DNA of 64,000 nt. Origin: a virus. The notes beneath the pieces are model-generated. The model saw nothing but the letters and a program-made list of their open reading frames with translations, did not search any database and had not been told where the DNA came from. The stretch spans positions 11,300 through 75,299 of the IMG/VR virus record IMGVR_UViG_3300050343_000216; one strand, given 5' to 3'. Shown here piece by piece: positions 57,121 to 60,614 of this stretch (its first letter is position 1; each line of letters opens with the position of its first letter). The position numbers and the translations under genes were made by a program.

Positions 57121-57597
57121 TTAGTTGTTGAGAGGATTATCTAAAATAGTCTGTATTTTTTCTTCTAAGTCTTTTCTTAAGGTGCGAAGATCTCCGTCTA
57201 AAGTTCGAACTCTTTCATTTAATTTCTGCTCCATTGCGTATACATCGTCACGAACTTCTCGTTGGGTTTCCGCAGTCTTATCATCTACTCGACGAGCAAT
57301 AGTCTCTACTTTGTCCATGTCTTCTGATAAGGTATCTTCTACTTCTTCTACTTTTACATCTAGGCTATCTAGTAGAGTTCTTAAGGATTGCATCTCTTCG
57401 CTTTGTACAGCCAGTTGCTGTTCAATACCAGACATGTCTGGAGCAACGTAGCTCTCTATAGTCTCTTTCATATTTCGATAGTCATTGTAAAACTCAAATG
57501 CACCCCAAGCTCCTCCAGCCAGGGTTGATAAAGCAGTAAGAACTAAAAACATCTTACCGCCTTTGAATGTCATTCCAGCGAATTCAAACTCCGCCAT
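57121..57597 (-). CDS. membrane-anchored coiled-coil protein
   Basis: GGAGAG RBS; TM segment FLVLTALSTLAGGAWGAF then long heptad repeats ending LDNPL. Confidence 0.7.
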   Translation of the reverse strand: MAEFEFAGMTFKGGKMFLVLTALSTLAGGAWGAFEFYNDYRNMKETIESYVAPDMSGIEQQLAVQSEEMQSLRTLLDSLDVKVEEVEDTLSEDMDKVETIARRVDDKTAETQREVRDDVYAMEQKLNERVRTLDGDLRTLRKDLEEKIQTILDNPLNN

Positions 57598-57808
57598 TAC
57601 TCTCTCCGTTACCGTATCTCTCTTTCCAGTTATTAAGGTCGTGCATATAGCAATCATGCTCTTGAGACCTTGCCCAACTGAGTTCTTGAATTATACGATT
57701 ATACCATTGTTTATCGTAATCATCTTTCGCTTTGTCCATATCAGAAAGAAGTTGTGAAATACGAATATCAATATAACCAACAATGTCTGTTTTCTTACCT
57801 CGTCTCAT
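57584..57808 (-). CDS. small cytoplasmic hypothetical protein
   Basis: AAGGAG RBS; YI..RI.QL..WYNR.IQEL.W. Confidence 0.65.
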   Translation of the reverse strand: MRRGKKTDIVGYIDIRISQLLSDMDKAKDDYDKQWYNRIIQELSWARSQEHDCYMHDLNNWKERYGNGESNGGV

Positions 57809-57832
57809 TTTAATTACTCCTTACCTATTATT

Positions 57833-58276
57833 TTAGTTTTCGAATTTTAATGCTCGAAGTTGTTGAATCTCTTGTTCAAGTTTTAGTACTTCAAGTCTCT
57901 TTTTCTTTAGCTCAAGCTGGTACAAAGTATTACAGTTTAGTCTTTCTTTTGGTGCTCCAAGAGGTATAGTAATTTTACCGTAAACACCAATGTCTCGCAT
58001 AAAATTATTGTAGTTATAGTTACCGTAAGGATCGCCTGCTGCAAGACTATAAGTTGGGTCTCCCTCGTTTAATATTCCTACTACTCCAAACTCTACGTTT
58101 GTTGATGAACCGATAGCTGCGGAACATTCTAAGTCACCCGCTCGTATTCTATCTGATTGAAATGACTGAGGAGTAGAAGGTAGAGATAAGTTTAGAGACC
58201 CAGAGTCTGCCATAGCTTCTTGGGCAAATCCAATTGCTACTATCGAAAGTATTACTGCTATCTTATCTTTGAACAT
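57833..58276 (-). CDS. exported protein with amphipathic beta-hairpin and C-terminal coiled coil
   Basis: Signal peptide ending AMA-D; VEFGVVGIL and IGVYGKITIPL strands; two Cys. Confidence 0.7.
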   Translation of the reverse strand: MFKDKIAVILSIVAIGFAQEAMADSGSLNLSLPSTPQSFQSDRIRAGDLECSAAIGSSTNVEFGVVGILNEGDPTYSLAAGDPYGNYNYNNFMRDIGVYGKITIPLGAPKERLNCNTLYQLELKKKRLEVLKLEQEIQQLRALKFEN

Positions 58277-58635
58277 ACTCTTGAAGAAATTAAACTCCCC
58301 TGTGCTTGTCCTTGTAAGAACTTTGAACGAGAACATATATACCCCACGTTATCAAGAGACTCATTTCGAATAAAAATAGTTACCTTTACTCTTTGTAGAT
58401 AAAGTACTTTGTATATTTTATTATCAGAAGCAAAAGGAATAGGTTTAAACTTTTTGTCTGTTACTTCTATTTCAAAATAGTCTACGTCTTGTCTTTTGTT
58501 GAATAGTAGCATTTCCGTATGTACAATTCCTTCCATGTAGGAAGACTGAAACTCAGGATAAGTAGGCGTCCAAGAGTGGGCACTTGCGTACCCACTACAA
58601 AGAACTAACCATAATGCTATTACTTGGCGATACAA
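58258..58635 (-). CDS. exported single Ig-like domain, PapD-N-like chaperone candidate
   Basis: Signal peptide ASA-H; L.N..F.I.V.D..PF..V.I.I pattern; C-terminal Cys pair. Confidence 0.55.
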   Translation of the reverse strand: MYRQVIALWLVLCSGYASAHSWTPTYPEFQSSYMEGIVHTEMLLFNKRQDVDYFEIEVTDKKFKPIPFASDNKIYKVLYLQRVKVTIFIRNESLDNVGYICSRSKFLQGQAQGSLISSRVCSKIR

Positions 58636-59117
58636 TTAGCTTCTACCAATGCGGTATAAGTTCCGCCTGGAAAAGGACGGTCGCCACCATACTCTGCTTC
58701 TGATTCCATCTCAAACCAAACACTACCGGCAATAGTGAGATCGAACTCAGTTGTATCATTGTACGTTACTTTGTCTGTGTCATAATCTGACATTTGAGTA
58801 TCAGTAACTTCATGCACCGCTGAAGAACCTGACCAAGCAACTACATCGTTGAGGGCAGGGCTAGCTGAGAATGAAGTAGGAGTAGTAATTACTGCTTTAT
58901 AATAGTCTGCGAGAACCACATCATATCGAACAGTAGGAAGAACACCTCCGTCTACCACGGCTGTACTAAGCGTATCGGCGGTAGGGTTTCCATATACTCC
59001 AGAAGTTACTGGTACAACAATACAGTTTCCGTCTACAGTACCGTTAATTGGAACATTTTCCGCACATACGCTTGCTGCAAAAAGTGCAACTGCTGTTACC
59101 ATAAGTTTCTGAAACAT
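58620..59117 (-). CDS. exported fimbrial (chaperone-usher) pilin-like protein
   Basis: Signal peptide; NVPINGTVDGNC N-terminal extension; Gly at -14 with alternating hydrophobic C-terminal strand. Confidence 0.6.
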   Translation of the reverse strand: MFQKLMVTAVALFAASVCAENVPINGTVDGNCIVVPVTSGVYGNPTADTLSTAVVDGGVLPTVRYDVVLADYYKAVITTPTSFSASPALNDVVAWSGSSAVHEVTDTQMSDYDTDKVTYNDTTEFDLTIAGSVWFEMESEAEYGGDRPFPGGTYTALVEANCIAK

Positions 59118-59126
59118 TTAAGTCTC

Positions 59127-60011
59127 CTATCGCTTGAATTGGGATTGTACCAATTCGTTGTGTAATTTGTCTTGAGCATAGCTCATTCTTCGGCCTCGAC
59201 TCGATAGTAAGGAACGAGCAACCGCTCCGTTATCTTTTAAGGTTACAGTCTCTTCATACTTAGATGTAGGCAGGGGTGCTGTATACGAAACTGGTAAAAT
59301 ATTCATCGCATCCAAAGCCGCCGACGTTGCATTGTCTGTAGCTGCAAGTGCAGATTCCATTGCAATGCCTAACATCTGTTCTAGAGTTTCTTGTTCTGGA
59401 CCCTCTTCACTTCCTTCCTTGGTGCGTTCTCGGTCTTCTTGTTCTTCATCTTCGTCTGCCATCATAGCTTTACGATCAATTTCATCTTGTACATAGTCAT
59501 CGTCCAAAGGGTCAGCAACTTCTGGCACTTCGGGTATCTCTGGTATAAATCCTTCACAATTCGGTGATACTTGTGGATTGAAGCAGGGATCGAAGCGGTA
59601 GCTGTAAAGTACAGTTGCATCCTCTACACTTCCATCCCCTTCGACTAGGATTGATCCGTCTCCGAACCTACTTCCTAGTATATTCTGTAACGGCACGTTC
59701 TTTACAATCGTATTCGGAGGCAATCCACTCCAGTCATCCGCAGCTCGAAAGATATATCCATCTCCGGCAGTATCTTCGTTCTGTACATAGACAACCATAT
59801 CAGAAGCAGGGTCTTTCACTGCTCTGTATCGGTAAAGTACGTTGGTAACTTCTAATCCCATCTGCTGCGGTAACACATTCGTCATTACCCAGTTGTAGCC
59901 GTTCGAAGCCGCGTTTAACGACTGTCCAAAAACTATATCAGAGGAGTAAGAGAAGTGCGAGTAGCCCAGCAATACCGCCGCTAGCAGCCGCTGTTTGTTT
60001 ATCTGTATCAT
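59127..60011 (-). CDS. exported protein with beta-rich N-domain, Cys pair and acidic linker
   Basis: Signal-like MIQINKQRLLAAVLLG..; DPC..PQ..P.C.G; D/E-rich stretch. Confidence 0.65.
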   Translation of the reverse strand: MIQINKQRLLAAVLLGYSHFSYSSDIVFGQSLNAASNGYNWVMTNVLPQQMGLEVTNVLYRYRAVKDPASDMVVYVQNEDTAGDGYIFRAADDWSGLPPNTIVKNVPLQNILGSRFGDGSILVEGDGSVEDATVLYSYRFDPCFNPQVSPNCEGFIPEIPEVPEVADPLDDDYVQDEIDRKAMMADEDEEQEDRERTKEGSEEGPEQETLEQMLGIAMESALAATDNATSAALDAMNILPVSYTAPLPTSKYEETVTLKDNGAVARSLLSSRGRRMSYAQDKLHNELVQSQFKR

Positions 60012-60525
60012 TTGCAAACTTTTCTCCTTCTGACTTCTCGGCAGGTTTTTCGCCATTATCTAGGGCCCAGCCAGCTTTTGCTTCTTCTCCTATCATTCCG
60101 TTATAAGGACATGGCGTACCTGCATGCATCATAGCATCAAATACACGAGTATCTTGGCACATCACTGAGACGGCTGCAACTTTCATGCCCATGTCGTAAA
60201 GAGTTTTTGCATTCTTTAGGCGCTCACAGTTATCATCAGTAAACTGAGTTCCTGTGGATATACCGAGAATTTGAGTTTGAACTGCTCCTGCAACTCCAAA
60301 GGTACACAAGTCAGAGTTGGAAGTATTAATTGTAGGAGAGATGGCTGAAGGGGGTGGACTTTTAAGAGTAGTCTCCGTTTTCCCTTGAGTAGTGATTGTG
60401 CTGTCTGTAATGCTTTCTGTGCGAATAATATCTTGACTGTTTGCTTCGGCTATAAACAACGGGCCTAGAACTACACTAACAGCTATTAAAACAATTCGTA
60501 CAAGGCTTTTGTCTAGATTATTCAT
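59938..60525 (-). CDS. exported four-Cys protein with C-terminal hydrophobic anchor
   Basis: Signal peptide; PPPSAISP, DLC, NCERLK, MCQD, GTPCP; ends SGGIAGLLALLLLL. Confidence 0.75.
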   Translation of the reverse strand: MNNLDKSLVRIVLIAVSVVLGPLFIAEANSQDIIRTESITDSTITTQGKTETTLKSPPPSAISPTINTSNSDLCTFGVAGAVQTQILGISTGTQFTDDNCERLKNAKTLYDMGMKVAAVSVMCQDTRVFDAMMHAGTPCPYNGMIGEEAKAGWALDNGEKPAEKSEGEKFANDTDKQTAAASGGIAGLLALLLLL

Positions 60526-60585
60526 TCTAAATGCCGAGGCTTTCGCGCTTGAGGTAAAATTCTCCTAAGGGTACTTTATGAATAA

Positions 60586-60614
60586 ATTATACATACCTTG
60601 GAGTAAAATGTCAA
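60586..60614 (-). promoter_or_regulatory. sigma70-type promoter for the exported-protein operon
   Basis: TTGACA-17 bp-TATAAT. Confidence 0.88.

Follow-up and report, generated by a model that had tools for sequence, protein, structure and literature searches.

A conserved phage gene cassette encoding predicted exported proteins, candidate components of a periplasmic assembly

The stretch of DNA analyzed here (the window, 64,000 nucleotides) covers positions 11300-75299 of the 75.3-kb viral contig IMGVR_UViG_3300050343_000216 of the IMG/VR collection, the completeness of which is estimated at 78%. The gene content, which includes a tape measure, a portal, a large terminase and several fibre genes, is that of a siphovirus, and the portal is about 40% identical to the portals of T5-like Vibrio and Pectobacterium phages. 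Beyond the block of fibre genes, at the distal end of the late arm, lie seven genes, g1 to g7 in the order of transcription (Table 1), which are the subject of this work; the products of g1 to g5 are predicted to be exported, and that of g7 to be inserted into the inner membrane. All seven minus-strand open reading frames (ORFs) are intact, adjacent genes are spaced by -74 to +24 nt, and neither a terminator-like site nor a second consensus promoter was found within the seven-gene unit. A preliminary description of this DNA had taken the genes as a single transcription unit headed by one promoter, and the intact frames, the small gaps or overlaps and the perfect sigma-70-type promoter upstream of g1 agree with this. 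The place of the cassette matches, as had also been proposed, that of llp in phage T5, where oad and llp lie at the end of the late arm.

Scans of viral contigs identified 26 loci when g3 was the query, and more than 594 when g1 was. Locus counts are based on 106 loci fetched, the window's own copy being left out. Wherever contigs are long enough, g1-g2-g3-g4-g5 are colinear (100, 100, 100, 97 and 93 loci, respectively), g7 is next in 84 loci, and g6 in 9 only. The synteny across viral genomes which had been suggested as a check on the operon is therefore found in about 100 related loci. A protein search with g1 yielded at least 7,999 relatives (7,999 of the 8,000 candidates scored), a profile of g3, run against 1.84 billion representatives, no more than 116 clusters, all without a Pfam family. 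When one genome per prokaryotic species was searched, g1 was detected in 29 contigs only, all from metagenome-assembled genomes (MAGs) or single-amplified genomes; the taxa to which these are assigned are scattered and do not plausibly go together, isolate genomes yielded no match, and misbinning of phage contigs would account for such a distribution. Genomes and viral contigs were also scanned for the context of distant g3-like proteins, which yielded nothing, and no published description of the cassette was found in the literature. DNA nearly identical to the cassette occurs in seawater and viral metagenomes from at least 12 studies. Near-identical contigs are also present in four metatranscriptomes (three studies); they cover the 56.5-60.3 kb interval and bridge the g7-g6-g5-g4, g4-g3-g2 and g2-g1 junctions, which is compatible with, though not proof of, transcription of the cassette. 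The neighbouring fibre gene (53.6-56.2 kb), the gene upstream (g0, see below) and the cassette promoter are missing from these contigs; such gaps are not evidence, because the runs were chosen by the cassette, and are contigs.

Gene starts were refined using ribosome-binding sites (RBS) and conservation. An overlap of g1 and g2, 62-86 nt long, is present in all of 80 loci; as it is universal, the hydrophobic tail of g1 and the predicted signal peptide of g2 share the same DNA in two frames. The stop of g3 and the start of g4 abut or overlap. A programmed g1-g2 frameshift, an idea arising from the universal overlap and from one fused database protein, was dropped, as the fusion is a single case among thousands.

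Export features and cysteine counts were measured over 73-87 homologues per family. A hydrophobic stretch preceded by K/R is found within the first 40 residues in each of the families g1 to g5. The predicted cleavage sites feature A/G/S at position -1 and A/V at position -3 in g3, g4 and g5, while the g2 site is non-canonical. Signal-like N-termini with A-x-A sites are retained despite the fact that their sequence is not conserved. A single transmembrane (TM) segment starts near residue 16 in g7, and g1 has an additional hydrophobic tail at the C-terminus. The earlier claim that five products with signals and one with a TM anchor reach the envelope thus holds, as a prediction, across homologues. 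The description of g1 as an anchored four-Cys protein stands for the four Cys residues, which are invariant, and was refined for the anchor, the C-terminal tail being present besides the N-terminal signal. In nearly every homologue the mature part contains four Cys residues in g1, two each in g2, g3, g4 and g5, and none in g7, the pattern expected of disulfide-bonded periplasmic proteins, such as these are predicted to be. No conserved lipobox Cys was found in any cassette protein, and no conserved beta-barrel component in the cassette.

Profiles of the single genes reveal that two modules are combined in the cassette, one made up by g1, g2 and g7 (module A), the other by g3, g4 and g5 (module B), and for either of them a cultured phage is known that lacks the other. 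Of the cassette genes, the complete genome of the Vibrio crassostreae siphophage PS14A.1 carries g3-g4-g5 only, as the genes p0043-p0045, which correspond to PHROGs 25895, 25455 and 37374, with profile matches of 8e-6 for g3, 6e-4 for g4 and 1e-11 for g5; neither g1, nor a credible g7, nor an usher were found in it. Conversely, in the complete genome of the Pelagibacter phage HTVC115P g1 is gp54, a relative of g2 is gp53, which has the HNELV..Q(F/Y) end typical of g2, and g7 is gp49 (6e-39). These genes reside directly after tail-fibre and fibre-assembly genes; g1, the g2-like gene and g7 are the only cassette genes carried, and no g5 was found in the genome. Two further proteins combining a TM segment and a coiled coil, gp52 and gp48, are encoded beside gp49 (5878-6240 and 7012-7221 in locus L108). 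In eleven MAG contigs g1 and g7 are present, and g3-g5 were undetected. In seven g1-bearing contigs, five of which are among those eleven, g1 is followed by a long paralogue of g2, in which the C-x-NP-x-C-P-G-Y loop, found once in g2, is repeated many times. The view that the seven genes make up one system was thus abandoned, g6 being accessory only and the remainder two separable modules. Inclusion of g6 in the operon is correct as far as the transcription unit of this phage is concerned, but the gene is absent from the conserved core. Parts of both modules are present in the PHROG collection, where g1 (PHROG 20531), g4 and g5 find matches, and the families 25895, 25455 and 37374 make up the Vibrio trio. 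All are annotated there as of unknown function and listed as unrelated orphan families; neither the linkage of the trio nor its combination with g1, g2 and g7 is recorded.

Monomers of g3 and g4 were modelled by AlphaFold2 (AF2), and the models compared by Foldseek to the structures in the PDB. The g4 model (65 sequences, pLDDT 92) is a predicted single immunoglobulin (Ig) domain, and its best matches are the N-domains of the chaperone-usher (CU) chaperones SafB, FaeE, PapD, SfaE, Caf1M and FimC (E 3.5e-4 to 1e-2, TMq 0.53-0.62). Eight of the ten top matches are CU chaperones, namely SafB, FaeE, PapD, SfaE and Caf1M, with E 3.5e-4 to 3e-3 and TMq 0.53-0.60, in support, at the level of a predicted fold, of the initial assignment of g4 as a PapD-like Ig domain; the Ig folds of MSP and of Cu-only superoxide dismutases score nearly as high. 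The mature protein (106 aa, one domain) begins with a 100% invariant His, and its invariant residues are H20, P24, N46, R48, C101, C121 and S122. Cys101 and Cys121 are located in the last two strands, with a long loop between them, and a disulfide of this kind is carried by FGL chaperones. No two-domain relative of g4 was found among the longer proteins searched, which included one g4-g5 read-through only. A copper site of the CopC/YcnI type, suggested by the invariant N-terminal His, was ruled out, as there is no second invariant ligand and no CopC match.

The g3 model (pLDDT 89) is a beta-sandwich in which residues 20-31 have low confidence. The mature protein (146 aa) has paired terminal Cys residues, contained in a conserved N-terminal segment (I24-x-G26-x-V28-x-S-K-C32) and in a C-terminal strand (G152-x-Y-x-A-x-V-x-A-x-C162). 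The first 12 mature residues, conserved, modelled with low confidence and with alternating hydrophobic positions, may resemble a donor strand. The PapG pilin domain, FimG/F, CfaB and CsuA/B are among the best, though weak, PDB matches, together with staphylococcal MSCRAMMs, and g3, earlier called pilin-like, is so only weakly. The label finds no echo in sequence families, since neither g3 nor seven distant relatives match the Pfam families Fimbrial or SCPU; among the viral models of BFVD no match to g3 was found below E 1e-3.

Several features of the trio recall the CU pathways, both those with FGL chaperones (SafB-SafA, Caf1M-Caf1) and the archaic Csu system (CsuC-CsuA/B): the predicted chaperone N-domain fold of g4, with a Cys pair in the last strands; the adjoining gene for an exported beta-sandwich subunit with paired terminal Cys residues, flexible in its N-terminal segment and with an alternating strand at its C-terminus; and the overlapping or abutting g3 stop and g4 start. 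In contrast to these pathways the cassette has no usher. A search for this protein (Pfam PF00577, about 800 aa), with E. coli recovered by the control, covered the 75-kb contig, itself 78% complete, five related records of viruses (51-148 kb) and the complete PS14A.1 and HTVC115P genomes, and yielded no match at E <= 1 in any of them, in keeping with the absence initially reported. Furthermore, the second chaperone domain (PapD_C) is lacking in every g4 homologue, no Pfam match to PapD_N, Fimbrial or SCPU was obtained, the cassette is found in viruses only, and four further conserved proteins have no CU counterpart. Membership in the CU family fails on usher, second chaperone domain and sequence profiles, and the resemblance is to the mechanism, not to the family.

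Among the remaining proteins, g1 belongs to the PHROG 20531 profile (3.9e-16, residues 44-145). The family has 51 invariant columns, the four Cys residues among them, and the domain is found also in cultured pelagiphages, roseophages, Achromobacter and Ralstonia phages, with 50-86% identity between phage types; in long forms the only difference is an N/T-rich spacer, which can reach about 300 residues. Protein g2 comprises a beta-rich N-terminal domain, a single disulfide loop of the form C-x-NP-x-C-(P/E)-G-(Y/F) and an acidic linker, and its C-terminal part, which is helical and conserved, ends in HNELV..Q(F/Y). Two Cys residues are found in 85 of 87 homologues, and paralogues of 500-850 aa combine many copies of the Cys loop with the same C-terminal part. 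No Pfam family matches g2, and nothing in it points to an adhesin, as it had been described. Protein g5 (3e-6 to PHROG 37374) has a conserved S-L-N-L-x-L-P strand towards the N-terminus and a heptad helix at the C-terminus, besides two strands that are amphipathic and a single pair of Cys residues; 17 columns, including C51 and C115, are invariant. An in-frame stop falls within the aligned region of 9 of 72 g5 homologues (for example L011:5642-6058), and these could be pseudogenes, assembly errors or cases of recoding. The match of g4 to PHROG 25455 is weak (0.018), and g6 matches no family of Pfam, PHROG or other family libraries. In g7 a conserved short N-terminus, predicted as cytoplasmic, precedes one TM segment and an amphipathic coiled coil, predicted as periplasmic, and the C-terminus bears the motif D-N-P-L, which is invariant; composition-type matches only were found for g7 (apolipoprotein A-IV/A-I, 5e-6; an Rz-like spanin PHROG, 0.08). 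Sequence and profile searches of Pfam, NCBIfam and PDB gave nothing specific for g1-g6 and coiled-coil-type matches only for g7, so that no Pfam or NCBIfam family corresponds to the cassette families; in the ESM Atlas g5 retrieves its own family only, and g1 nothing.

The type of promoter heading the operon varies among phages. The T4 late-promoter motif TATAAATA is found within 150 nt upstream of g1, mostly at 30-50 nt, in 38 of 83 loci, over a background of 0.019 per 150 nt. The same motif precedes g4 in 3 of 78 loci, and was never found before g2, g3, g5 and g7. In 13 of the 83 loci a perfect sigma-70 site takes its place upstream of g1. The operon therefore moves as one unit, and adopts the promoter type of the resident phage. 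Perfect TTGACA-N16-18-TATAAT sites in the window are eight, against 0.06 expected, and all are oriented with their genes; besides the cassette, the operons for portal, tape measure and fibres have promoters of this consensus type. The promoters at 63756 and 63844 have the sequence TTGACAACCCCG in common.

Table 1. Cassette genes, promoters and other features of the contig. Positions refer to the window, unless marked as contig positions.
Feature	Position	Strand	Remarks
g1	59938-60525	minus	signal peptide (predicted), T/S/P-rich spacer, strongly conserved 4-Cys domain, C-terminal hydrophobic anchor; PHROG 20531
g2	59127-60011	minus	start at M16 of the listed ORF, RBS GGAG
g3	58620-59117	minus	exported (predicted) beta-sandwich subunit
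g4	58258-58635	minus	TTG start; exported (predicted) single Ig domain
g5	57833-58276 (or 58336)	minus	exported (predicted); PHROG 37374
g6	57584-57808	minus	small protein, no export signal; accessory
g7	57121-57597 (or 57657)	minus	inner-membrane protein (predicted), periplasmic coiled coil
g1/g2 dual-coding overlap	59938-60011	minus	74 nt in the window
Cassette promoter, sigma-70 type	60614-60586	minus	TTGACA-17-TATAAT, consensus score 12/12
Eight perfect promoters	348, 20751, 34560, 42548, 57081, 60586, 63756, 63844		oriented with their genes
Next perfect promoter after the cassette	57110-57081	minus	heads a DNA methyltransferase gene
g0, outer-membrane-protein-like, 193 aa	60641-61222	minus	signal/anchor sequence, alternating strands, look of a small outer-membrane barrel
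g0 promoter	61283-61255	minus	extended -10
Rz/Rz1 pair	contig 946-1708		phrog_739, phrog_812

The gene upstream of the cassette, g0, matches no family and is absent from all 106 related loci. Having the look of a small barrel, it was considered as the missing pore, and ruled out because it is not co-conserved with the cassette. Downstream of the cassette a TerS-like gene is found in 20 loci; a few loci include matches to endolysins or tail lysozymes. Genes adjoining the cassette in other phages are found elsewhere in the window (43919-45367 and 52653-53295, both on the minus strand), with 55-94% identity. They encode a DUF1353-like protein (phrog_1158), an EF-hand protein with two TM segments, two very basic small proteins and a TerS-like protein (phrog_3802), the gene for which resides within the fibre block, far from terL. 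This points to accessory blocks having recently been exchanged between unrelated types of phage. In the lysis region of the contig (946-1708, 1954-2589, 2570-2977, 2925-3686 and 3731-4171) host-like genes, AOX-like, IscU and porin-like, are interposed between Rz/Rz1 and the T4-type lysozyme.

The interpretation that we favour, with a confidence somewhat short of even, is that the cassette directs an assembly anchored to the inner membrane and facing the periplasm, which acts late on the envelope. As a phage-only operon, it would provide the infected cell with five disulfide-bonded proteins exported to the periplasm, and one or two proteins inserted into the inner membrane. Module A would supply membrane anchors and long periplasmic spacers, g1 being tail-anchored via its C-terminus, and g7, a coiled coil, anchored via its N-terminus. 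Module B would supply a trio resembling chaperone and subunit: most likely g4, a half-chaperone, would hold g3 by beta-strand complementation, and g3 would then be handed to, or capped by, the coiled-coil protein g5. The assembly, and any polymer it may form, would sit inside the periplasm, and would not be a classical surface pilus. In T4-like carriers it would be made late, and in the phage described here from a type of promoter shared with the portal and tape-measure operons. Its role would most likely be the remodelling or control of the envelope at the end of infection, be it lysis timing, release or protection of the progeny.

A number of observations weigh against this interpretation. 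Kinship of g4 to PapD_N is not visible at the sequence level, as no match to Pfam PF00345 was found at E <= 1, and the alignment made by hhalign to six gammaproteobacterial PapD_N proteins is not significant (P = 0.026, probability 1.9%); the A1-strand Pro and the L-x-N motif align nonetheless. The similarity of g3 to pilins is weak, the E values of its best PDB matches ranging from 3e-3 to 5e-2 with a TM score of about 0.4. DNA can be present in RNA libraries. The neighbours of the cassette vary, and tail-fibre assembly genes, the commonest upstream family, are found in only about one of nine loci. A perfect site of the same sigma-70 consensus is found also on the plus-strand arm, at 348, where it heads an early-looking unit, and for this reason the promoter does not fix the timing of the cassette in this phage. 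At contig positions 946-4171, about 64 kb from the cassette, the phage encodes an Rz/Rz1 pair with overlapping genes, and an endolysin of the T4-lysozyme type; the cassette therefore is not the spanin of the phage, and a lysis role would be accessory. Likeness to two-component spanins such as lambda Rz/Rz1 is confined to g7, which has the predicted topology of an i-spanin (N-terminal TM segment, periplasmic coiled coil, conserved C-terminal end), and to the T4 late motif heading the operon in T4-like carriers; unlike spanins, the cassette lacks a lipoprotein partner, g7 lacks Cys residues, and the match to the Rz PHROG is the marginal one given above.

Other interpretations assign the same proteins to the cell surface, to the exclusion of other phages or to the virion. 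The preliminary description had proposed a filament on the infected cell, which can be formulated as an usher-independent surface fibre: g3, chaperoned by g4, would use its N-terminal extension for donor-strand exchange and so polymerize, and g5 would oligomerize to give the conduit across the outer membrane, in the place of an usher. The fold of g4, the pilin-like ends of g3 with their conserved flexible N-terminus, the two conserved g5 strands with alternating hydrophobic residues followed by a heptad helix, and a trio sufficient to itself in a complete cultured phage genome without usher all speak for such a fibre. We nonetheless regard it as improbable, as the pilin similarity is faint, the helix of g5 is highly charged, no feature targeting the outer membrane is seen (neither a lipobox nor a C-terminal beta-signal), and a fibre made late, just before lysis, has no evident use. 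Nor can the usher of the host be borrowed as a rule, since CU chaperones were found in only 4 of the 81 genomes that were sampled from one class, that of a MAG with g1 and g7 on one of its contigs. None of the components shows an evident passage across the outer membrane; for this reason the periplasmic assembly is favoured over a surface pilus, and the claim of a filament was not retained. Nor was evidence found for the functions proposed along with the filament, which were superinfection exclusion, aggregation with new hosts and avoidance of grazers. It is equally doubtful that g3-g4-g5 is a minimal virus-encoded pathway in which a chaperone of one domain would load a pilin-like subunit onto an oligomeric g5 pore or stalk, itself able to insert, to give a fibre or trans-envelope conduit; if true, this would be the first pilus-like machine from a lytic phage, with g1, g2 and g7 as its inner-membrane base.

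Superinfection exclusion or protection of the progeny, by a periplasmic complex of the inner membrane that blocks later phages or the inactivation of progeny on debris, in the manner of T5 Llp or T4 Imm and Sp, is less improbable than a fibre, but still unlikely. The cassette shares with these systems products that are all predicted to act in the envelope, and with oad-llp a place at the end of the late arm, beside genes for receptor-binding fibres; tail-fibre or fibre-assembly genes are its commonest upstream neighbours, and the identity of the g1 domain across phage types suggests a conserved host target. However, T4 imm and sp are early genes, whereas a T4 late motif heads the operon in T4-like carriers, and the cassette is kept across phages with different fibres, and so is not receptor-specific. 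T5 Llp, lambdoid Cor, Imm and Sp are single small proteins, Llp and Cor being lipoproteins; six conserved proteins are many for exclusion, and none of them has a lipobox or sequence similarity to these proteins. Very improbable, finally, is that the cassette encodes ordinary virion or tail-fibre accessory proteins, the hydrophobic N-termini of which are not export signals. Location in the late, structural arm, adjoining fibre genes, would suit such proteins. Retention of signal-like N-termini with A-x-A sites in sequence that is not itself conserved, even numbers of invariant Cys residues in the exported members only, membrane anchors in g7 and g1, and the lack of matches to PHROG structural families do not.

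The cassette is among the commonest uncharacterized gene sets of aquatic phages, being found in T4-like, T5-like and, in part, podovirus genomes, including those of cultured SAR11 phages. Lytic phages thus appear to invest six conserved genes in the envelope of the host, beyond holin, endolysin and spanin, and to have adopted part of the bacterial chaperone-subunit principle without the usher. As each module is found alone in a cultured phage, PS14A.1 and HTVC115P, the question is directly testable.

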